This document shows, in pieces, positions 4,461 to 64,000 of a stretch of 64,000 bases of DNA. Where the stretch lies: positions 11,143-75,142 of IMG/VR virus record IMGVR_UViG_3300025018_000137; one strand, given 5' to 3'. The notes under the pieces were generated by a model. That model did not search any database and was not told where the DNA came from. It saw only the letters and a program-made list of their open reading frames with translations. A program made the translations under genes and the position numbers. The DNA is from a virus (lineage: Duplodnaviria > Caudoviricetes). Position 1 is the first letter of the stretch. The number at the start of each line of letters is the position of its first letter.

Positions 4461-5144
4461 TTACTCGAATCGGATTGAAATCGACTTCACAATTTCCTCT
4501 GGTTGAATGGTGACGCTGCTCCGCAAGGTATCTGCACGGGATTTGGCGAGTGAATCCTTCGGCCCCTTCGGGTAGTCAGAACCTAGAACCGCTCGCCCGT
4601 ACATCATCGCGGAGAACGCGTCTGCTTTGTCGAAATCAGTGAACGCTTTGTCCCATTCTTGCTTGAGAAATTTTGTTACTTCACCTTTCGAGGCATTGCC
4701 TTTCCCGGTGATGAACTTCTTCAAGGTCGATGGGGGAACGACGATTATAGGGATGTCATCCGAAAGCACAAGGTGTTTCGTGAGGCCAGTCATTTCGGCT
4801 ATCTGGGTCATCCGACTGCTGGCCCCCTTGACGGGCATACCAAAGGCGTAGCCCTCCACGCAGACGGCATCTAGCCTTCTAATCTGTAGAACTTCCCACA
4901 CTGCATGGGCAATGATGACGTTCCGGAGGGTATTGTCCGAGAAGCCCTCTACGTTCACCGTTTTGGTCTGGACGGTACCTTCAGCGTCGACGTAGGCCAT
5001 GCCCGTACTGGTCAGGGACATATCTAGGCCGAGAACTGCCGGGTCATTCGATGGAGAAGCAGGTGCTGACGAAGGGGCACGTCTTCGCGCGGGAAGAGTC
5101 TTCGGACTTGCAGTGCCGCCGGGCCGGGATTTCCTTGGTCTCAT
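4461..5144 (-). CDS. RuvC-like Holliday junction resolvase
   Basis: VLGLDMSLTSTG (catalytic Asp), VCVEGYAF, PPSTLKKFITGKGNASK, DKADA motifs; start uncertain. Confidence 0.8.
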   Translation of the reverse strand: MRPRKSRPGGTASPKTLPARRRAPSSAPASPSNDPAVLGLDMSLTSTGMAYVDAEGTVQTKTVNVEGFSDNTLRNVIIAHAVWEVLQIRRLDAVCVEGYAFGMPVKGASSRMTQIAEMTGLTKHLVLSDDIPIIVVPPSTLKKFITGKGNASKGEVTKFLKQEWDKAFTDFDKADAFSAMMYGRAVLGSDYPKGPKDSLAKSRADTLRSSVTIQPEEIVKSISIRFE

Positions 5145-5976
5145 GGTACTTCCTGATTGCGGCAGCTTCCGCCAGATAGGGCGCAAGGATGGTATCTGCA
5201 TTCGAGGTGTCGACCTTGAACTCCAGATAGGGGCTCCCGGTCCTCCACTCCTTGCATACGTACAGGATCGAAACCCTGTCCGTGATCTTGTGGCCCGCCT
5301 CTCGCGCCAACCACCAATAAAACAGAGCCTGAACCACATGATCCGCCTGCGGGGAGCCGTTGAGGTCTGCAAAACCAGTCGATGAGATTGATTTCACTTC
5401 CGCCAGATGAATTCTTTTGTTGTGAAGGATCGCGAGGTCTGTCGAACCGCTGACCTTCAGCCCCTCATGCCGCAGCAATATCTCTTCGTACTTCGTGAAG
5501 TGCCCGACCCGCCCGCATCCAGTGCACGACTTGTTGTGCTTATTCGCCTTGGCTCTCGTGCACGGCCCTATGGTCGACGGAGCGTGACAAGTGCATCTCC
5601 ATCGGCCGAACAGCATCGGGAAGTCTATGACGTTATCCGTCACGAAATCCTGCACTGCCCTGCCTAGCGCGAAAGTCAGGCGCTGCGACTCCCATATCGG
5701 CGAAGCAGGAACCGGGACTGCCGCCGCCTCGGATATCGCGACCATCCGCATGCACTTGTGAATCAAGTCACTAACGTGGGTGTAATCCCCGTGCCGGAAC
5801 GAATCGTTAGACGGGCGAGAGGTATGGAAGATGCGCAGGATCGGGTCTTTCACCGAGATCGGCCCGATCTGCTGTTCCGAGTCCGCCTTGTTCTGGCGGG
5901 CAGCCTGTCTAGGATTAACGGCCGGCGTGCGCCGCTCCACCGTCTTGCCTAGTATCTTTCTGCGATCAACTGCCAT
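5044..5976 (-). CDS. Cas4/AddB-like PD-(D/E)XK exonuclease
   Basis: HVSDLIHKC, GSTD...AEVKS nuclease motifs, QALFY, and C-terminal C-x10-C-x5-C consistent with an Fe-S staple. Confidence 0.75.
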   Translation of the reverse strand: MAVDRRKILGKTVERRTPAVNPRQAARQNKADSEQQIGPISVKDPILRIFHTSRPSNDSFRHGDYTHVSDLIHKCMRMVAISEAAAVPVPASPIWESQRLTFALGRAVQDFVTDNVIDFPMLFGRWRCTCHAPSTIGPCTRAKANKHNKSCTGCGRVGHFTKYEEILLRHEGLKVSGSTDLAILHNKRIHLAEVKSISSTGFADLNGSPQADHVVQALFYWWLAREAGHKITDRVSILYVCKEWRTGSPYLEFKVDTSNADTILAPYLAEAAAIRKYHETKEIPARRHCKSEDSSRAKTCPFVSTCFSIE

Positions 5977-6340
5977 GATTGGATACCAGTTCTTCTAGGT
6001 CCGACAGCGATAGGACTGCCAGAGAAGTGAGCGACTTGCCGTTCGTGTCGGCAAACTCCACAACGATGACCGGAAGCTCGGTAGCAGTGAGCGCCGCATC
6101 CGTCAGCTTATCGAACATCGCCCGGGTGACTGAAAAGCTCTTCCGCTGAGTGGTCTTTGCCTCCACCCGGAAGATGCCGTGAAATCTGGTCACGTCTCCC
6201 TTGACGTGTTTGTTGCCGGAGCCCGCCGTTACCCTGCCGCCACCGCGCTTCGCCAGCTCTTTCTCTTGCTTTTTGGCTCGGCGGTGGCTGAGTCCGTTGC
6301 TCCCGCTATACGTGCGCGACAGGAACTGGTCGCGACTCAT
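5966..6340 (-). CDS. PD-(D/E)XK endonuclease, archaeal-type (Hjc-like) resolvase candidate
   Basis: GSGNKHVKGDV...FRVEAKTT motif; start overlaps the RecA stop. Confidence 0.55.
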   Translation of the reverse strand: MSRDQFLSRTYSGSNGLSHRRAKKQEKELAKRGGGRVTAGSGNKHVKGDVTRFHGIFRVEAKTTQRKSFSVTRAMFDKLTDAALTATELPVIVVEFADTNGKSLTSLAVLSLSDLEELVSNHGS

Positions 6341-7470
6341 TCGTACATCTTCCCGGTCAACCATGAGACGAAGTAGTCGGGCATCTTCAGGTTCTCTGCC
6401 TGACCGGCTATCAGGTACCAGTACAAGGCCCGGTACACATCGCGATTGTCGTTCAAGAACACTTCGGCCTGCTTGGCGTTCGCGAAGACGTGATGCTCTT
6501 CCCCGAATTCCAAGGTCCACTTCGTGCCTCCGCCAGAGTAGATGCCGAACCGCTTTGCGTACACGAGGAGGGTTCGAGAGTCGTCGATGTCCCCCGTGGA
6601 AATGGCCTCTTCCGGCCTATCCATCCGGCACAGACGGAACTCCCCGGTCCTCGGGCCTTCATTCAGTTTGTTCTTCTGGACGGTGAAGGAATGCTCGTTC
6701 TCCACCATCGTGTCGAAGTCATAGGCTCTGTCCTTGCCGGTTATCTCCTTGTTGCGCATGTACCACGTAATCGAGGGGAAGTGCTCTACTGCGTACCCGC
6801 CCGGCAGGGTACGATTGTCGCCCTTGAAGACTCCGATCTTGGTGCGGAACTGGTTGACGAATAGCACTGCGCATTTGTGCCCACGCATGCGTTCGTGAAT
6901 CATCGCTACGTTCAGTTTGCGGCACAGCATTCCGATGAGACGAGACTGTAGGCCGACGTGCGAATCGGACGCCTCGCCCTCTACCTCTCGATTCGGCACA
7001 AGGGCGGCGAGCGAGTCGACAATCAGAAGGCTGGTCTCCTGCGAGGATATCGTGGCCTCGGCCATGTCCACCGCAATCTCGCCAGTCTCCGGCTCGGCGA
7101 CCAAGATTTTGTCAACGTCTACACCGAGCTTTTCCGCCCACGTAGCATCGAACGTCTTCTCCGGGTCCAACAGAACTACACGCTGATCCGGGTACTGTCT
7201 TTGAGCATTGCCTGCGATCTTCATCGCGATCAGGCTTTTACCCGAGTGCCGGTTGCCGGCCACCTGAGATATGCGGCCTTCCGGTATCCCGCCGAGTAGC
7301 GCGAAGTCCAGAATGAACGCGCCGGTAGATATCCTCTCTGGGGCCTTTGATTCCCTGCCGCTGCGTATCACGCCATCCCCGTACCGTTTGTCGAAAGCAG
7401 CCATAGTAGCGGCCAGCTCTCCCTTAGGGTCCGTGTCCTTTTTCTTGGTTCTTCTCTTGGGCGTGGCCAT
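6337..7470 (-). CDS. recA: RecA-family recombinase
   Basis: ISTGAFILDFALLGGIPEGRISQVAGNRHSGKS (Walker A), LLIVDSLAAL (Walker B), VLFVNQFR, PGG. Confidence 0.93.
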   Translation of the reverse strand: MATPKRRTKKKDTDPKGELAATMAAFDKRYGDGVIRSGRESKAPERISTGAFILDFALLGGIPEGRISQVAGNRHSGKSLIAMKIAGNAQRQYPDQRVVLLDPEKTFDATWAEKLGVDVDKILVAEPETGEIAVDMAEATISSQETSLLIVDSLAALVPNREVEGEASDSHVGLQSRLIGMLCRKLNVAMIHERMRGHKCAVLFVNQFRTKIGVFKGDNRTLPGGYAVEHFPSITWYMRNKEITGKDRAYDFDTMVENEHSFTVQKNKLNEGPRTGEFRLCRMDRPEEAISTGDIDDSRTLLVYAKRFGIYSGGGTKWTLEFGEEHHVFANAKQAEVFLNDNRDVYRALYWYLIAGQAENLKMPDYFVSWLTGKMYE

Positions 7471-7472
7471 CG

Positions 7473-7823
7473 TTATTCGTCCTCCCCAGGGGCGGCGACC
7501 CCATAGTATTCCAGCTCTTGGGTTATCCACCCGCCTACCCGCTCCGCACACTGCCGGAACACGTCGTCCGCCCGCTCGGGAACGCAAGGCATAGTCAAGC
7601 TCGCCTCGATTCTCAGGCTTTCGTAGTTGCCGGTGTTTCTGGTTACGCCCACGGATGCGCGGACAAATGCGGGTTCAACGTCAAACAGGATGGCCTCTAT
7701 CGGCACATCGACTATTTTGTCGTCGACGACTTCTCGGGATACGGTCAGGGTTGTGTGCACCATGCCTTGCCCTGTGGCACCCCGAGAAGTCGATTTTCTC
7801 CTTCTTGCCGTCGCCTGCGTCAT
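7473..7823 (-). CDS. Conserved phage hypothetical protein
   Basis: 116-aa ORF with VGVTRNTGNYESLRIEAS motif, translationally coupled to recA. Confidence 0.55.
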   Translation of the reverse strand: MTQATARRRKSTSRGATGQGMVHTTLTVSREVVDDKIVDVPIEAILFDVEPAFVRASVGVTRNTGNYESLRIEASLTMPCVPERADDVFRQCAERVGGWITQELEYYGVAAPGEDE

Positions 7824-7844
7824 ACCTTCACCTCGCGCTAGGCA

Positions 7845-8393
7845 TTAACTGAAAAGTCTCACCCTCGCCGCATTCACCTCATCCGCAATGCGGGCGACAG
7901 TATCTTCGTGGTCTCGCCGGAGATACCGGAAGTGCTGCTCGTGCACTGCCAGAACTCCTGCGATGGCCTCCAGCTCTTCCCGTAGGTACTGCGGCCATCC
8001 GTACGTCGTATCCGAGAAGATCGGAGCCGGGATGCTCTCCGCCTTGATCCACGTACGCAGGGTGAGCAACGTACGGCCTAGTGCCGCTGCTGCTTCCCGA
8101 GACGAGAAAGACTCGGCCATGAACGGCTCCACACCTTCCGCGTGAAGTTCCCGCTCCGTGCCGTCCCCGAGCAGCCCCTGATCCAAGATCGGGGTCACCT
8201 CGACTCGCTCTCTTTCCCGATACGTACGGCGCGACTGCTCTTTCAGCCCTTCTCTCAGGATGTGATCTGCAGCATACGCCTGCCGTCGGCGTTCGTTACG
8301 ATTTTGGGCAAGCGCAGCCGCTTGCTGTTCTTTGTGCACTGCGCGGATAGACCGGCGGCGTTGCACTTCTGCACTTCGTCGGGCATTCGCCAT
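7845..8393 (-). CDS. HTH (MerR/excisionase-like) DNA-binding protein
   Basis: FSSREAAAALGRTLLTLRTWIKAESIPAP resembles a MerR-type HTH. Confidence 0.55.
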   Translation of the reverse strand: MANARRSAEVQRRRSIRAVHKEQQAAALAQNRNERRRQAYAADHILREGLKEQSRRTYRERERVEVTPILDQGLLGDGTERELHAEGVEPFMAESFSSREAAAALGRTLLTLRTWIKAESIPAPIFSDTTYGWPQYLREELEAIAGVLAVHEQHFRYLRRDHEDTVARIADEVNAARVRLFS

Positions 8394-9811
8394 TTGAATA
8401 TCTCCACATTTGACTTTCCGAAATCCTTCAACCGCTGAGCGAGTTGATGCTCGGCACGAAAGGACATTACGTCACGGATGGTAACCCATATCGGGGTTAG
8501 CTTTCCAGATAACGTCCGAAGGATTCTACCGTGTACTTGAACAAATGCGGCCTTCGGGGTCACATCGATCCCTGCGTCCAGCCCGGGGACATCGACGCCT
8601 TTCGAGAATACTGAGTAGGTAGAAAACACGATCCTTGAGCTGGCCAACCTGTCGTCCAGCCTTTCCAGCTTGTTCTTGCTCTCCTTCGGTACCAGTACGA
8701 CCGGAGTGAACACAGTGTCTTTCTGCCAGTGGGGCGGGAACCTGTCGGGGCTCCTATCCTTGGCGTATCTCCACTTCGTAGTCTTGCCCGTGTACACAAC
8801 CATCTCTTCCTCGGGCACCCCGGTCATCTCCATCAGGGTGTGAAGCTCCTCCAGATGCTGAACTCTCGCCCCGATTACCAGAATCTTCCTGTCATGCTCG
8901 TACAGCCATTTGATGGCCTGCACGATCATCCAGTTCCGGTCGGGATCGGCGGCAAGCTCACTGACGAACCTGCCGTCTTTCGGCGAGATGTTCGCGTACC
9001 ACGTCGGGACGTTGCCTTTGTACTCCAATACCCAGACTTTCGACTGTTGACGCTCTTCTTTCAGAACTACCCGGTGCTGCCCTACGTGATCCATCAATAG
9101 CTTGTTCAGTGCGTCCCTGCGATCGGGAGTGGCCGAAAGTGCCAATCGGTACATAGCGGGGAACATAGCGAGAACGTTGGAAAACTGCTCCGCCCCGCAT
9201 ACGTGGCACTCGTCGAATATCACCGTTCCGAATCTGAAGAAAAAATCATCAGAGTCGTACCCGTCGTCCGCTCTCCGGTAGATGGACTGGACCATCCCGA
9301 TCACGAAGTCGTAGCCTTCCCATTCGTCCTTGCCACCCCCGATGTAACCGATTTCACTTTTCTCGTAACCGAACAGGGAAACCAAGGTCGCGATCCATTG
9401 GTTCGCCAGCTTTTCCTGATCTACGAGTATCAGGGTCTTCATGGACAGATGGGCCGCGATGCAGCAACCCATAACCGTCTTGCCCGATCCGGTGTACGCT
9501 TCGAGCACAACATCATGCGCGGGGGGTACTTTGCCGCTAGCCGGGGCGAACAAAGACAAGACTTGGTTCACGGGGGCCTCTTGATGCGGGCGCAATTCAG
9601 GCCAGCTAGGGACTTCGTAATCCATTTCATCCCCGCACAAATCCGGCTCGACACCAATCGAGCTGGCGAAGGATCGCGGAGCCAGTAGCCATTGCGATTC
9701 GTCCGACCGATAGCCCTTGTGCTCGACAGTGGGCTCGCCCAGCTTCTTTACCGAGTAGGTCAGTCTCTTGCGGTGCTGGTAGTTGTCTGCGATGTGGGTC
9801 AGGCCCTGCAC
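8255..9811 (-). CDS. Superfamily 2 (DExH, UvsW-like) helicase
   Basis: LRPHQ Q-motif, AYTGSGKT, FDECH, ALSATP, FSKGVDVP, QVHGRILR. Confidence 0.9.
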   Translation of the reverse strand: MQGLTHIADNYQHRKRLTYSVKKLGEPTVEHKGYRSDESQWLLAPRSFASSIGVEPDLCGDEMDYEVPSWPELRPHQEAPVNQVLSLFAPASGKVPPAHDVVLEAYTGSGKTVMGCCIAAHLSMKTLILVDQEKLANQWIATLVSLFGYEKSEIGYIGGGKDEWEGYDFVIGMVQSIYRRADDGYDSDDFFFRFGTVIFDECHVCGAEQFSNVLAMFPAMYRLALSATPDRRDALNKLLMDHVGQHRVVLKEERQQSKVWVLEYKGNVPTWYANISPKDGRFVSELAADPDRNWMIVQAIKWLYEHDRKILVIGARVQHLEELHTLMEMTGVPEEEMVVYTGKTTKWRYAKDRSPDRFPPHWQKDTVFTPVVLVPKESKNKLERLDDRLASSRIVFSTYSVFSKGVDVPGLDAGIDVTPKAAFVQVHGRILRTLSGKLTPIWVTIRDVMSFRAEHQLAQRLKDFGKSNVEIFKWRMPDEVQKCNAAGLSAQCTKNSKRLRLPKIVTNADGRRMLQITS

Positions 9812-9969
9812 TTCATCTACCTCTGTTCCGGCTCTGGTCCGACGGCGCGTTGTAGTGCACGTCGCGGACTCTTGCCCGGAGCCTTTTCTCTCGATTCGCC
9901 CGGATACGCACGTAGCGCATGCTTCCTCCTAGACGGGGCGGCTAGGCCAATTCCTGCCGCCCCTGTTCC

Positions 9970-11112
9970 TCAACGACGGCCTTTACGAGCAGCCGGACGA
10001 GCAGCCGGTCGGACTGCGGGTCGGACACCGGCCCGGCGACGAGGCGGGGCTTCTTCAACCTCCTCTTCGGCCTCCTCTTCAACCTCCTCTTCGCCTTCTT
10101 CCTCGGCCTCCTCGTCACCTTCCTCCCATTCCTCTTCCGCCTCTTCGTCGGCGCTGTTCCATGCCTCGTCCGTCACGCCTTCGTCATCCAGCTCCGCGTC
10201 TTCGGTGGCACGAGAGCCCGGACGCGGCCGGCCTCCTACAACCTTCAGGAGCTGGTCGTACGTCATGGGAGGGAACACCTCATCGTAGTCGACGGGCTGC
10301 GAGGCGTCTTCCTGTATCGTCTTGCCCTCACGGTTGGTGTACTCGCGAACGTACTCCGACAGTTCGTCTTCAGACATGAATCCAACCAGATCAATGTCCG
10401 ACCCTGTGTTCGGAGAGCGCTGATCGTCGCGGAAAATCTTGACGATGGCACCGCGCATCGAGCCGTTGTTGCCGTCGCGTACGGCGGAGCTGTCCTGCAT
10501 CCGAGTCCACTTCGGCTGCATACCGAGCTTGACTCTCATCAGCTTCCGGCTGAACGCTTCGTTGCCGTCCTTGTCCTCGTAGAACGTAAGGATCGTGAAG
10601 ATCATCACGTAGGACGGGTGGGAGTCCGGGGCGTTCTCGCACACCGGGCAGAACTCGCCGTCGTCCGGAGCTTCGAGGCACGGTACGAACTTGGTCGGCC
10701 GGTTCTGATTGTTCGGGTCCGGGAGTGCGTGCTCGTGACGGTAGAAGGTGTCGATCGCTTCGTCCAGAACGACAATCTCGACCTCTTCTTCTGGCGGCAT
10801 CCAGAAGGACCAAGGGACGTTCGATTGCAGCTTAGCGGCTTCCCGCCGTTCTTCCATCTTCTTCCGCTCTTCCTCGGCCCGGGCTCGACCCGCACTACCG
10901 CCGTAGTTACGGGTAGTAGGTCCGGTCGGTGCTGCGGCGGCTTTGCGGCTCCGCGCCACTGCCGGGCGGCGACCTGTCGGGTTTGCTGCGGGTGCGCTTG
11001 CGGACTCGGCCCGTGCGCGTCGTGCGGGTCCAGCGGCTGGACGGGCGGTACTCCGCGTCGCAGGCTTCGCTTTCCCACGTACTGCTCGGTTGGGTTTCCG
11101 GTTGATGGGCAT
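9970..11112 (-). CDS. Single-stranded DNA-binding protein (gp32-like, tentative)
   Basis: Located in the replication module; H...C...CPVC possible Zn ligands; acidic C-terminal tract; Arg/Ala/Pro-rich ends. Confidence 0.6.
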   Translation of the reverse strand: MPINRKPNRAVRGKAKPATRSTARPAAGPARRARAESASAPAANPTGRRPAVARSRKAAAAPTGPTTRNYGGSAGRARAEEERKKMEERREAAKLQSNVPWSFWMPPEEEVEIVVLDEAIDTFYRHEHALPDPNNQNRPTKFVPCLEAPDDGEFCPVCENAPDSHPSYVMIFTILTFYEDKDGNEAFSRKLMRVKLGMQPKWTRMQDSSAVRDGNNGSMRGAIVKIFRDDQRSPNTGSDIDLVGFMSEDELSEYVREYTNREGKTIQEDASQPVDYDEVFPPMTYDQLLKVVGGRPRPGSRATEDAELDDEGVTDEAWNSADEEAEEEWEEGDEEAEEEGEEEVEEEAEEEVEEAPPRRRAGVRPAVRPAARPAARKGRR

Positions 11113-18567: not shown

Positions 18568-18631
18568 GTGTCCACCTGCTGGATAGCCCCCTATCCACCT
18601 GCTGGATAGCCCCTATCCACCTGCTGGATAG
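18568..18631. repeat. Three palindromic iteron-like repeats (candidate replication origin)
   Basis: CTATCCA-CCTGC-TGGATAG at 18591-18609 and 18613-18631, variant GTGTCCACCTGCTGGATAG at 18568-18586; flanked by AT-rich TCTGTGTATTC x2. Confidence 0.7.
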
Positions 18632-18632
18632 C

Positions 18633-19013
18633 CTAGACCGATTTCAAGGCCCTTTCTCGGATCAAAGGAGCCAGAATTCTCTCTACATGGACACAATATC
18701 TGTTACCTCGTGACGTGCCTTTTCCCTTCATGGTGCCCACCAATCCCCTCTCTTCTACGTCCGATAGACAGGCCCATAGGGTGCTCTTGCTGACGGGTAG
18801 TCCAGAGTGCAGGGCCTCCCCGGTCCTAACATCTGTAACCCCGAAAATGAAATGACGCTGCGGAATGTACTCCCATTCCTTCCCCCATCGTAGAGTGCGT
18901 TCTGTTATGAATAGCAGGACCAGCCCGGAGTTGATCCCTACTTCCACGAGCCATCGGTTCAGTATCTGTTGGTACACCGGGACGTACAAAGACATCAGTT
19001 TGTCGTTGACCAT
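18633..19013 (-). CDS. Winged-HTH replication-initiator-like protein (N-terminal domain only)
   Basis: LLFITERTLRWGKEWEYIPQRHF...SGLPVSKSTLWACLSDVEERGLV resembles phage O-like wHTH; ends at the iterons. Confidence 0.55.
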   Translation of the reverse strand: MVNDKLMSLYVPVYQQILNRWLVEVGINSGLVLLFITERTLRWGKEWEYIPQRHFIFGVTDVRTGEALHSGLPVSKSTLWACLSDVEERGLVGTMKGKGTSRGNRYCVHVERILAPLIRERALKSV

Positions 19014-57660: not shown

Positions 57661-57950
57661 AGAGAGACCTTATAGGTAGAAGGTAGAAGGAGGTAGAAGG
57701 TAGAAGGTAATAATCCCATACAACCGGGTCTCGGCACCTTCTAGGTAGCCAACGGCACCTTCTAGGTAGCCAACGGCACCTTCTAGGTAGAGAGACCTCT
57801 TAGGTAGAGAGACCTCTTAGGTAGAGAGAATGACCGCATGGCCCCCCTTTTTTCGATCCTATGCAGGCCAGTGTGTGTTCCCGAGTGTGTGTTTCCTAGA
57901 GCTTTTCCTAGGCCCGAATCTTATGCCCGAATCTTATGCCCGAATCCTAG
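57661..57950. repeat. Cluster of short tandem repeats
   Basis: AGGTAGA runs; GGCACCTTCTAGGTAGCCAAC x~2.7 (21 bp); AGAGACCTCTTAGGTAG x2 (17 bp); CCCGAATCTTATG x~2.6 (13 bp). Confidence 0.8.
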
Positions 57951-58777: not shown

Positions 58778-59383
58778 TCATGCCATTTCCGAGCTTGAGT
58801 ACTCGAACGATAACGCGATCTTGGCGCCGTCCGCGTCGATGGCGATCTTGCCGCCCTCGGTCATGGCGACGGCCATAGCTCTGACTACGTCCGCTCCGCG
58901 CGCGTTCCAATTCGGATTGGCGTTAACCATGCGATTGCCAAACCATAACTTCCCTTTATCCGTCAATCCCTCTTTCGAGAGATTCCCGGAACGGATGTGG
59001 TAGTCGACTGGGCCGGAGCCGATTAGGGCCCGGAGCAAGGCGAGACGTGCCTTGCTCCGCCCTTTGACGAGGATCCCGGCTCGGTCAAGATCGGCGAAGC
59101 CGGTGGCGATTAGCGCGCCGATCGTATATGCCGACTTCGTGCGCGTGTCCGCGCCGATGACGCGGTAGGGCGACTGCTTGCCCGGGGCTACCGAGAAGAC
59201 CGAGAAGACCGTGGCCGTCGTGGCCGCGGCTTTCGTCGTGGCCGCGGCTTTCGTCGTGGCCGCGGCTTTCGTCGTGGCCGCGGCTTTCGTCGTGGCCGCG
59301 GCTTTTGCGGCTGCGGCTTTCGCGGCTGCGGCTTTCGCGACTGCGGCTTTCGCGGCCGCGCGAGAAATCTTGGGATCGGTCAT
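58778..59383 (-). CDS. Early protein with Ala/Lys/Thr-rich N-terminal repeats; paralog of 62528-62842
   Basis: KAAATT x4 (18-nt repeats); C-terminal domain aligns by eye with the 62528 product. Confidence 0.6.
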   Translation of the reverse strand: MTDPKISRAAAKAAVAKAAAAKAAAAKAAATTKAAATTKAAATTKAAATTKAAATTATVFSVFSVAPGKQSPYRVIGADTRTKSAYTIGALIATGFADLDRAGILVKGRSKARLALLRALIGSGPVDYHIRSGNLSKEGLTDKGKLWFGNRMVNANPNWNARGADVVRAMAVAMTEGGKIAIDADGAKIALSFEYSSSEMA

Positions 59384-59765
59384 GGTCTGGTACCTGTCAT
59401 AATTGTCGAGCTCCCGTCTGGGGGCTGGCCGGCCGACATGGCCGACATTCGGAAATTGACGCATGTAGGCCCGATTTGCAACCGGTTTTATAAGATTCTT
59501 CGGTCGACCGACGAACGGTAGGTATGCTGCCCCGCTCGAATGGCGATCGATCGGCGCGGCCGGCGCTCGTGTAATCGTCTGCAAACGCGATCCGCATACG
59601 TGCATCTATATGTGTGGAGCATGGCCGAAAATGCGCTGGAGACGATTTAGGTAAGTACCCTATACGCTGGCATAGGCCCGAACAAACGCGTCCTGTAGAG
59701 CGTCCTAGTCGCCGTACGCGCGGCATTGCGCCTTAGCGGATTCGTTGTAGTTTTTTTCTTCCTCG

Positions 59766-59910
59766 CGCGAATAATGCTTGCGCTCGCATACGATTCTATG
59801 GTTGCGATCGGCCATCGCGAATAATGCTTGCGCTCGCATACGATTCTATGGTTGCGGCAAAACGTCGTCCGACGAATGGCATTGCGCTCGCATACGATTC
59901 TATGGTTGCG
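59766..59910. repeat. Triplicated non-coding element
   Basis: 41-bp copies at 59766-59806 and 59816-59856; 29-bp core TTGCGCTCGCATACGATTCTATGGTTGCG again at 59882-59910. Confidence 0.85.
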
Positions 59911-60029: not shown

Positions 60030-60129
60030 TTGAATGCGAATGATTCGCATTCAACGGAAATGAGAATGATTCTCATTCAACGGAAATGCGAATGATTCGC
60101 ATTCAACGGAAACGAGAATCATTCTCATT
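60030..60129. promoter_or_regulatory. Tandem array of four Fur-box-like 9-1-9 inverted repeats (26-bp period)
   Basis: AATGCGAATGATTCGCATT (60033), AATGAGAATGATTCTCATT (60059), AATGCGAATGATTCGCATT (60085), AACGAGAATCATTCTCATT (60111); 14-16 of 18 defined positions match AATGATAATnATTATCATT. Confidence 0.6.
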
Positions 60130-60381
60130 CTCATTCGCATCAGTCAGCAGACCCTGTTAATACACCAGCCAGCCCAGAGGGGTAGGTGTCAGCACCACGC
60201 ACCACGCACCACTATCAGGCGAAACTGTGCCGATGGAATAGGGTCTATCCAGCAGAGCAGCAGCACCTATTACGCAGACACCAGCTAGCGATGGTATAAG
60301 CGCCACTAAACGGACAGCACTCAGCCAGCAGGTATGGACGATGGAGAGAGAGCCTAACTAGGCTCTCTCTGCGTGTGAAGG

Positions 60382-60858
60382 CTAGATCAAGAATCCGTTC
60401 TTGGCGTATCTAGTCCAAGAATGGGGCACAATTTCGTTCCATGATTTTTGGGAAATTGCATCCACTACGTGTTCTCTGCGGACCTCGATTCCGCCTTCGG
60501 CAGTCAAGACCAAAACAAGGAATCCATAGTCGACATGGTCGAACCACATGAACTGTCGGATGTCATACCCGTCCGGACCAGTTACTTCCGCGTACAACGA
60601 CGATACATCCAGTACCGCCTGCCCGCCGACCCGATCGTACAGATAAACCTGATCGTGCAACGTCACGATGCCGGACTGTACCGCGCACATCGCGTTGTAC
60701 GATCCGTACTCGCCATTCCACATGGCGAATTGGACCGCATGTTGGAACTCTATGGTTCCGTTGGTGTTGCAACTGTGCAACACCTCGCCAAGGCGTAGCG
60801 GATTGCAAAGGCCGGTGTCGACCAACGGAATCGAAGTCTGGAGTATTGAAGTATGCAT
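60382..60858 (-). CDS. Hypothetical protein
   Basis: 158-aa ORF. Confidence 0.5.
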   Translation of the reverse strand: MHTSILQTSIPLVDTGLCNPLRLGEVLHSCNTNGTIEFQHAVQFAMWNGEYGSYNAMCAVQSGIVTLHDQVYLYDRVGGQAVLDVSSLYAEVTGPDGYDIRQFMWFDHVDYGFLVLVLTAEGGIEVRREHVVDAISQKSWNEIVPHSWTRYAKNGFLI

Positions 60859-61740: not shown

Positions 61741-61836
61741 TCACCACCACCAGTTCACCACCACCACCAGTTCACCACCACCACCAGTTCACCACCAGCA
61801 GTTCACCACCAGCAGCAGTTCACCACCAGCAGCACT
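61741..61836. repeat. Degenerate (CAC/CAG)n-AGTT microsatellite-like tract
   Basis: Repeated CACCACCACCAGTT / CACCACCAGCAGTT units. Confidence 0.75.
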
Positions 61837-61984
61837 ACTGTTACGGCACCACATGCCGATGGAATAGGGTATGGGCAACACGCACCAGACAGACGACGCG
61901 ATGTATTGCACAAAATGTGCCGTCAGAGGAGGGTAGGCAGCAGAGCAGCACCACGGTAGGCAGCAGAGCAGTCTTTGTCTGGGC

Positions 61985-62527: not shown

Positions 62528-62842
62528 TCAGGCGCGCTGCGCTTCGATAACTTCGATTTCACGCTGAACGTCCGCCATCCGAACTGCCCATGAGTTGCGG
62601 GCAGTCTTCCCGTCGAGGCGGGCAGCGAAGTGGGCGAACCCATCCTTCGTCAGCCCTTTGGGCGTGATGCGCTCTGCGTGGTACTGCAGGGGACGCTTGC
62701 CGACAAGCGCTTCGAGCTTGGCGTAGTTCGGGTTACGCCCGCCTTTCGCCAGCTTGCCTCGCTTGTCGATGGAAACGAAGCCGGTCACGACCATCGCTGC
62801 GATGGTCCGGGCAGAAGTTGTCTTGTTGCTTGTCATCGTCAC
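62528..62842 (-). CDS. Early protein, paralog of 58778-59383
   Basis: SARTIAAMVVTGFVSIDKRG...LQYH...GLTKDGFAHF; AAGGA RBS; promoter upstream. Confidence 0.6.
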   Translation of the reverse strand: MTMTSNKTTSARTIAAMVVTGFVSIDKRGKLAKGGRNPNYAKLEALVGKRPLQYHAERITPKGLTKDGFAHFAARLDGKTARNSWAVRMADVQREIEVIEAQRA

Positions 62843-63334: not shown

Positions 63335-63724
63335 TGCACTGTCCTCTGCATGCGTTCTCGGCGAAATTCCGAGCTGGCATCATCCTCTATATAACATCCT
63401 ATGGCAAGCGCTATGTAATCGTCTACACTGAATGCAAGGCGGGCCAGCAGAACAACAGAACAGAAAGCGGGCACGCACCACCACTCACCAGCACGCCACG
63501 CACCACTACACCACTATCACGTCACCGCCAGAATGCACCACTACACGAACAGCTTGTTATACAGGAGGTGTGCCCATGCAACCGGGTATGCAGAAATCAC
63601 GATCCAGACACGTACACGAACACTACCAGCACTCAGCACTCCACCAGACACCACCCAGCAGCACTCCACCAGACACCAGTTCAGAATCGAGTAGTTATAC
63701 AGTAGACCTGCCGACGGACTAGGG

Positions 63725-63784
63725 TATGTGCAGCATCGACTATGTGCAGCATCGACTATGTGCAGCAATGGATGTGCAGCAAAT
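63725..63784. repeat. 16-bp tandem repeat
   Basis: TATGTGCAGCATCGAC x2 plus two partial ATGTGCAGCA copies. Confidence 0.8.
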
Positions 63785-63833
63785 GGAAAGATCACACACC
63801 ACATCAGGGAATTTGTTCTACACGCAAAAATCA

Positions 63834-64000
63834 GGCAGGGGAAGTGAAACTTAGTAGCAGAAGATCGGCAGGGGAAGTGAAACTTAGTAGCAGAAGATCG
63901 GCAGGGGAAGTGAAACTTAGTCGCGTAGCTATTAGCAGAAGATCGGCAGGGGAAGTGAAACTTAGTCGCGTAGCTATTAGCAGAAGATCGGCAGGGGAAG
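63834..64000. repeat. 33/45-bp tandem array, truncated by the window end
   Basis: GGCAGGGGAAG starts at 63834, 63867, 63900, 63945 and 63990; the later units carry a 12-bp insert TCGCGTAGCTAT. Confidence 0.9.

Follow-up and report, generated by a model that had tools for sequence, protein, structure and literature searches.

The window analysed here, a stretch of 64,000 nucleotides that makes up the last 64 kb of the 75,142-bp IMG/VR virus record IMGVR_UViG_3300025018_000137 (Caudoviricetes), carries at positions 60030-60140 an array of four palindromes resembling the operators of the bacterial repressor Fur. The array is real and lies far beyond chance expectation. Judged by its sequence, it belongs to the injection-stop repeat family of phage T5 and provides that family with a new, unrelated carrier, and its most likely function is that of a cis-acting docking site for host Fur. 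In full, we propose that the array acts as a cis-acting landing pad for the Fur protein of the host, or for a very close Fur-family paralogue, a reading that we hold tentatively and with somewhat less than even confidence; that Fur would bind the array at all, whatever the consequence, appears probable.

The array spans ~110 bp and consists of four 19-bp palindromes of 9-1-9 form, starting at 60033, 60059, 60085 and 60111, with an exact 26-bp period. Unit 1 is a perfect 12-1-12 palindrome (60030-60054) around the core AATGCGAATGATTCGCATT (60033-60051), which has TGCGAAT-type half-sites. Unit 2 (60059-60077) is the perfect 9-1-9 palindrome AATGAGAATGATTCTCATT, unit 3 (60085-60103) has the same sequence as the core of unit 1, and unit 4 (60111-60129), AACGAGAATCATTCTCATT, shows a single mismatch relative to unit 2. 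The period, measured centre to centre, is fixed by three CAACGGA spacers (60052-60058, 60078-60084 and 60104-60110). The array is closed by ATTCTC ATTCTC ATTCGC at 60121-60138, and the hexamer extension ATTCTC-ATTCTC-ATTCGC-AT (60117-60140) makes an overlapping fifth site (60117-60135) at an offset of +6. TRF described the array as 3.8 copies of a 26-bp period with 88% matches and a score of 154, and the pattern AATGAGAATNATTCTCATT, with up to three mismatches allowed, was matched four times in the window against 0.00 times expected from 100 dinucleotide shuffles.

The record as a whole has a GC content of 58%, is classed as linear and is estimated by CheckV to be ~76% complete. Codon-usage gene calling across it assigned each of the ~79 genes to the minus strand; neither end repeats nor a terminal repeat was detected in this incomplete record, and the window contains no tRNA genes. 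Within this genome, the array forms an AT island (38.7% GC). It is non-coding by the same gene calling, sitting in a gap between two minus-strand genes, and the spacer that holds it is ~1 kb long, untranslated and dense in repeats, dividing two blocks of small leftward genes. A first-pass annotation, made from the letters of the window, had described the four repeats, their period, the CAACGGA joints, the longer first palindrome, the hexameric end and the non-coding location, and all of these are present as described; its label of an early region is plausible in view of the small orphan genes.

The same annotation had held that both arms of the palindromes change together, as expected for a site under selection, and here only part of the claim stands. 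The symmetric alternation is present, with copy 1 equal to copy 3 and copy 4 almost equal to copy 2, but it may reflect one symmetric difference copied as a 52-bp unit rather than several independent compensatory events, and in other phages the half-site variants are mixed within one site. The identity of copies 1 and 3 and the near identity of copies 2 and 4, together with the absence of the array from the closest cultured relatives of the carrier (see below), would also suit a functionless, recently duplicated fragment acquired horizontally. We consider this highly improbable: an exact period, palindromes without a mismatch and a 39% GC island that persists in a genome of 58% GC all suggest that the array is maintained, and the architecture recurs in several unrelated phage families.

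The likeness of the sites to Fur operators was measured with a symmetric matrix of 19 E. coli K-12 sites cut from NC_000913.3. The sites are those of the strongest Fur clusters, located by the coordinates of Chen et al. 2007 (PMC2189734, Table 4) after a genome-version shift and registered within 2 bp; the published coordinates land on the AATGATAAT-N-ATTATCATT register. In leave-one-out scoring, the 19 real sites reached 16.4-28.5 bits. Under this matrix, the array sites at 60059 (the strongest), 60111, 60033 and 60085 scored 26.1, 22.8, 16.8 and 16.8 bits, respectively, and the overlapping site at 60117 scored 13.2 bits, so that two sites rank among the best E. coli operators and two stand at the low end of the real-site range. 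The rest of the 75-kb genome had a mean of -32.7 bits (standard deviation 9.2) and a maximum of 10.5 bits, and the matrix scan of these 75 kb found no other Fur-like site. Measured against AATGATAATNATTATCATT, units 1-4 have 4, 2, 4 and 3 mismatches at the 18 defined positions, in agreement with the 14-16 matches counted in the first-pass annotation, whose description of the sites as Fur-box-like is thus borne out both by consensus and by matrix score within the range of experimentally supported E. coli sites.

All four sites have the form expected of a Fur box, a 19-bp 9-1-9 repeat near AATGATAAT-N-ATTATCATT or GATAATGATAATCATTATC, which is also the form of the motif in the E. coli clusters (gpmA, ryhB, yoeA, fecI and entC; PMC2189734) and in the Caulobacter boxes (PMC2724300). 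The ATTCTCATT arm is the same in the array and in the gpmA and ryhB operators, and the hexamer logic of Fur operators is matched by the +6 overlap at the end of the array. By their occurrence in the Caulobacter boxes, TGAGAAT and TGCGAAT are both natural half-sites for Fur: among the first 27 boxes listed in a table that covers validated or predicted sites (PMC2724300), 19 have left halves of the ATTGCGAA type (TGCGAAT) and 8 of the ATTGAGAA type (TGAGAA), a comparison made by counting half-sites in that table. The TGATAAT heptamer is absent from both strands of the 75 kb.

The array is not confined to this genome. A blastn search with a 131-bp stretch matched 291 phage records, with E values down to 6e-14, and in T5-like phages the match is located in the terminal repeat. 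Its T5 counterpart comprises copies 1-4 of direct repeat C together with palindromes E-I in 'Repeat Region 3' (AY587007 9468-9637), which is part of the left terminal repeat and forms the injection-stop-signal region, a repeat block catalogued since 1987/2005 (Heusterspreute 1987; Wang 2005; Davison, bioRxiv 10.1101/866236). In the comparative account by Davison (bioRxiv 10.1101/866236), the block is conserved and left unexplained; DnaA boxes are put forward there as the stop signal, and Fur goes unmentioned. The earlier statement that no such phage array had been described therefore needs to be divided: the repeat family has long been on record in T5, whereas no paper was found that calls these repeats Fur boxes, a search that mostly left out subscription journals and is weak evidence for that reason.

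The relationship to the T5 block extends to the repeat unit and to its ending, both of which can be aligned. Array and block share the unit family AAATG(A/C)GAAT-N-ATTC(T/G)CATT, and the terminal unit of the array, GAGAAT-C-ATTCTC-ATTCTC-ATTCGC-AT, is identical at 26 of 27 positions to that of the Salmonella T5-like phage vaffelhjerte and close to that of T5, the T5-like form being GAGAAT-C-ATTCTC-ATT(C/A)TC-ATTCGC-AT. The E. coli Fur matrix gives 19.6-28.4 bits for the sites of T5 and 18-26.5 bits for those of vaffelhjerte. Both Repeat Region 3 and the array lie in long, untranslated, repeat-dense DNA, and both are functionally unexplained repeat blocks. They differ in period, which is exactly 26 bp here and 29-104 bp in T5-like phages, and in their surroundings, as T5 has DRD repeats and an annotated nick and the array has neither. 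Nor is there a counterpart here to the paired DnaA boxes of the T5 block (IRD'-spacer-IRC'), since a search of both strands along all 75 kb of the record found no DnaA box (TTWTNCACA). As the array occurs here without DnaA boxes, it can be considered apart from the model that puts the injection stop down to such boxes.

Similar arrays of 2-5 sites, with a spacing of mostly 26-29 bp and mixed GAGAAT/GCGAAT/GATAAT half-sites, were found in T5, vaffelhjerte, tuntematon, CR8 and Colwellia phage 9A, always in non-coding gaps of 0.7-1 kb among small hypothetical genes. In Phapecoctavirus tuntematon (MN850618 18062-18140), where the locus is annotated only as repeat_region, the spacings are 29, 29, 6 and 23 bp; they are 29, 29 and 38 bp in Certrevirus CR8 and 27 bp in Colwellia phage 9A. 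These last three phages belong to other families, with other hosts and another base composition, and their arrays, which are without functional annotation, nevertheless resemble that of the window in architecture and contain 2-4 strong Fur-like sites. The flank CATTCAAC also adjoins sites in CR8 and vaffelhjerte, and CATTCAAG does so in Colwellia phage 9A. The sites of the other phages are mostly asymmetric hybrids, such as AATGCGAAT-C-ATTCTCATT.

As for the carrier itself, its portal and tape measure proteins are 41% and 35% identical, respectively, to those of the Pseudomonas Samunavirus phages SM1/PaMx31, and Aeromonas phage HJ05 and Rhizobium phage L338C are more distant relatives. These two proteins do not place it in the Demerecviridae (no search was aimed at homologues of the pre-early genes A1/A2), and on this protein evidence the phage is unrelated to T5. 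Palindromes of the array type are lacking in SM1, HJ05 and L338C, the cultured phages that come closest by portal, so that the module seems to be acquired or portable and not inherited. A blastn search of 5,426 complete E. coli genomes returned nothing that aligns with the array, which makes the architecture of discrete sites a phage trait.

A search of IMG/VR and of metagenomes for the double-palindrome pattern returned three short contigs only (L141-L143). One of them, L143 (Ga0209232_1048817), is a metagenome contig with a GC content of 34%, too short for a reading of its own, that has at 66-116 two perfect AATGAGAATGATTCTCATT sites at the 26-bp period of the array, followed by the same ATTCTCATTCGCATT extension. 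In another, L142 (JACCDZ011545070.1), several AATGAGAATCATTCGCATT sites at 1773-2063 surround a strong TTGACA/TATAAT-like promoter, and the locus looks like a conventional Fur-regulated promoter with the GCGAAT half-site. A search for the host of the phage through the 19-bp terminal inverted repeat of an insertion sequence-like cassette led to Acidobacteriota, Alphaproteobacteria, Bacteroidota and others, in all of which only the ends match, and was therefore uninformative.

How a landing pad for Fur might work can be outlined from the geometry and position of the sites. As 26 bp correspond to ~2.5 helical turns, neighbouring Fur dimers would point to roughly opposite sides of the helix, and metal-loaded Fur would coat ~110 bp. 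A complex of this kind, placed in the spacer between unidirectional gene blocks, would form a barrier or checkpoint, serving perhaps as a transcriptional roadblock or as an insulator, and in T5-type phages it could be part of the pause in DNA entry. The strength of the barrier would then follow the iron status of the host. It is also conceivable, albeit rather unlikely in our estimation, that discrete Fur operators, joined in a portable cassette of ~100 bp, are passed among unrelated virulent phages (T5-like phages, Phapecoctavirus, Certrevirus, Colwellia phage 9A and this GC-rich siphophage). Such a cassette would recruit host Fur in cis, and the iron status of the host would gate either the entry of the genome or the passage from one gene block, the first, to the next; Fur would then be the long-sought host component of the T5 injection-stop signal.

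Several observations weigh against the docking-site reading, in which we infer both the binding of Fur and its effect in cis. The scores of 13.2-26.1 bits come from an E. coli matrix that may not represent the Fur specificity of the host. The GCGAAT half-site is found in 0 of the 19 E. coli matrix sites, yet it recurs in the arrays of phages with enteric hosts, and its recurrence together with the CATTCAAC flank could indicate a different or additional binder. The sites of natural Fur clusters reportedly overlap at offsets of 3 or 6 bp; the main spacing in the array is 26 bp, and the 60111/60117 pair alone is offset by 6 bp. A sigma-70 scan found no promoter-like sequence within several hundred bp of the array on either strand (phage-specific promoters are possible), and no repressed promoter that the array would overlap or directly follow was seen. 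Close relatives were found neither by the exact spacer pattern in IMG/VR, nor by the flanking proteins, PolA or the alignment of the paralogous domain described below against JGI metagenomes. Finally, the barrier role is deduced only from the position of the array, in a record that is ~76% complete.

The architecture likewise sets the array apart from chromosomal operators, as natural Fur clusters are contiguous and cover promoters, whereas the sites here are discrete, separated by 7-bp spacers and located away from any sigma-70-like promoter. The suggestion of the first-pass annotation that the array might be an iron-responsive switch on early transcription finds no footing in this setting, given that no recognisable sigma-70 promoter lies at or beside it.

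That annotation had favoured another role, a sponge acting in trans, in which phage genomes replicated to hundreds of copies, each with 4-5 strong sites, would bind up Fur and thereby relieve the repression of iron uptake by the host, to the benefit of phage iron enzymes. The site scores equal those of sites that bind Fur, and the idea is quantitatively possible: with 5 sites on each of a few hundred genomes, the number of sites would be of the order reached by FURTA plasmids, and also of that of the ~5,000-10,000 Fur monomers in an E. coli cell. In the FURTA assay, multicopy Fur boxes derepress the Fur regulon, and the phage genome resembles the plasmids used there in placing high-affinity Fur boxes (putative in this case) on a replicon that reaches a high copy number. 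The assay, however, is a laboratory artefact of copy number, and we know of no natural phage sponge of this type that has been demonstrated. A sponge would also be expected to have many dispersed sites rather than one compact locus, and it requires late host transcription and translation. The arrays lie without exception in long, untranslated, repeat-dense spacers typical of cis elements, and in T5 the same module is on the first-step-transfer DNA. As T5 destroys the DNA of its host in a matter of minutes, derepression of host genes would be pointless there. Because of the compact locus, the cis-like spacers and the first-injected DNA of T5, a decoy function is less economical than a role in cis; it is left without support, and we regard it as distinctly unlikely.

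A binder other than Fur, either another regulator of the host that prefers similar palindromes or a phage protein, is doubtful but not without grounds, as the GCGAAT half-sites and the CATTCAAC flank, which gives a 25-bp palindrome in unit 1, exceed the E. coli Fur motif and the discrete spacing of 26-29 bp is unlike that of natural Fur clusters. The phage also offers candidates, because the array is flanked by two paralogous proteins. One of them, a protein of 275 amino acids (58778-59605, minus strand), is encoded by the gene downstream of the array and combines a Lys/Ala repeat that resembles histone H1 (KAAATT repeats) with a C-terminal domain behind it; the first ~74 residues of its open reading frame (ORF) look non-genuine, and the true start may be an internal Met before the repeat. 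The other, a protein of 104 amino acids (62528-62842, minus strand), is a paralogue of this C-terminal domain (38% identity, E 6e-16). The pair matched nothing in Pfam, PHROG or the ESM Atlas, and a set of 5.8 billion proteins contained one homologue of the domain (71% identity), on a 2.1-kb contig. An AlphaFold model of the 104-residue domain reached a pLDDT of 77 and had no Foldseek match in the PDB. A wide VIA-align search with this model returned weak rows with Z scores up to 4.5, among them the winged-helix proteins Sso10a, F93, PadR and MarR at Z 3.2-3.9, values below the meaningful threshold that make a winged-helix-like fold a weak prediction only.

The distribution of these proteins does not follow that of the array. 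The 104-residue domain has no homologue, at BLAST sensitivity, in 50,697 phage records that include all array carriers, and the paralogous pair was rejected as the cause of the shared motif since the array also occurs in phages without these proteins; the pair could instead bind some other repeats of the spacer. Six-frame ORFs of at least 45 amino acids revealed no protein shared beside the arrays of this phage, vaffelhjerte, T5, tuntematon, CR8 and 9A, so the DNA-binding protein common to carriers that would be expected of a phage-repressor array was not seen at BLAST sensitivity. The 75-kb record contains no FUR-family gene either. The lack of a shared flanking ORF, of phage homologues of the 104-residue domain and of a FUR-family gene in the 75 kb favours a host factor as the probable binder. 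Among host regulators, MetJ pairs, LexA (CTGT-N8-ACAG) and the FNR consensus gave no match on either strand of the 75-kb genome, CRP-like matches exist only away from the array, and the motif scores as a top-grade Fur site. To our knowledge, Fur is the only regulator whose motif fits.

It may be asked whether the array requires a specific binder at all, as palindromes could also form cruciforms or hairpins for replication initiation, packaging or nicking, or be part of a structured leader RNA. A single strand of the array folds at -34.2 kcal/mol (z = -7.15 against shuffles), the array is AT-rich and adjoins iteron-like 50-bp repeats, and the T5 array adjoins a major nick. Even so, the other phages have kept the half-sites but not their pairing, no Rfam family was matched beyond one sub-threshold chance hit, the genome is devoid of DnaA boxes, and a putative origin with iterons lies elsewhere (18571-18633; its lambda-O-like label is unconfirmed). 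A purely structural element therefore seems very unlikely to us.

If Fur does bind the array, virulent phages of several families would carry one and the same docking cassette for a host repressor in their untranslated DNA, and there would be a concrete handle on the 60-year-old question of what halts the transfer of T5 DNA at 8%. If it does not, the cassette still marks a DNA-binding factor common to many hosts. What is new is, in the first place, its presence in an unrelated, GC-rich and uncultured phage as an island of 39% GC, which is explained neither by background AT-richness nor by T5 ancestry. New as well are the occurrence of the array without DnaA boxes and the equivalence of its alternating half-sites to the two variants used by the Fur of a GC-rich bacterium, Caulobacter.

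The surroundings of the array contain further features. The gene upstream of it encodes an orphan protein of 158 amino acids (60382-60858, minus strand), is transcribed towards the array and has no Pfam or PHROG family and no relative in IMG/VR. The untranslated spacer is shared with 2.8 copies of a direct repeat of ~50 bp (59766-59910, found by TRF), 120 bp from the array. Each of these iteron-like repeats contains the near-palindrome TGCGCTCGCA, and they are probably a binding site different from that of the array. About 2 kb from the array, untranslated DNA at 57674-57946 contains a run of different perfect tandem repeats, of a 17-bp AGGTAGA type, of 21 bp (2.8 copies), of 17 bp (2.7 copies) and of 13 bp (2.7 copies).

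Immediately next to the array, on its upstream side with respect to transcription, a strand-skewed module that is G/T-rich on the minus strand (60130-60370) includes a hairpin at 60346-60369 and, at 60228-60244, one of six copies of a minus-strand motif of ~35 nucleotides (ATACCCT-N5-6-TCGGCA-N11-12-TAAC-like). The copies occur only in repeat-rich untranslated modules, the others being at 61854-61870, ~61920-61940, 63709-63725 and, in genome coordinates, ~100 and 153. With a spacing unlike that of sigma-70 promoters, this motif is a candidate for a promoter specific to the phage or for a site bound by a protein. Tandem repeats that are G/T-rich on the minus strand are present at 60150-60230, 61742-61832 and 63430-63700, and each of these strand-skewed modules precedes small genes of the minus strand. 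Three exact copies of the Chi octamer of E. coli, GCTGGTGG, lie in such repeats, at 61792, 61806 and 61823, along with several variants that differ at one position, and the 75 kb have only 8 exact copies in all.

A protein of 102 amino acids has an identical copy encoded on a separate contig of 87,380 bp. At 63725-64000, perfect tandem repeats with units of 16, 33 and 45 bp are cut off by the end of the contig, and related repeats are found at its start, at genome positions 1-160. The break in the record probably falls within DNA rich in repeats. Overall, the stretch from 57 to 64 kb resembles the nested repeat regions of T5.

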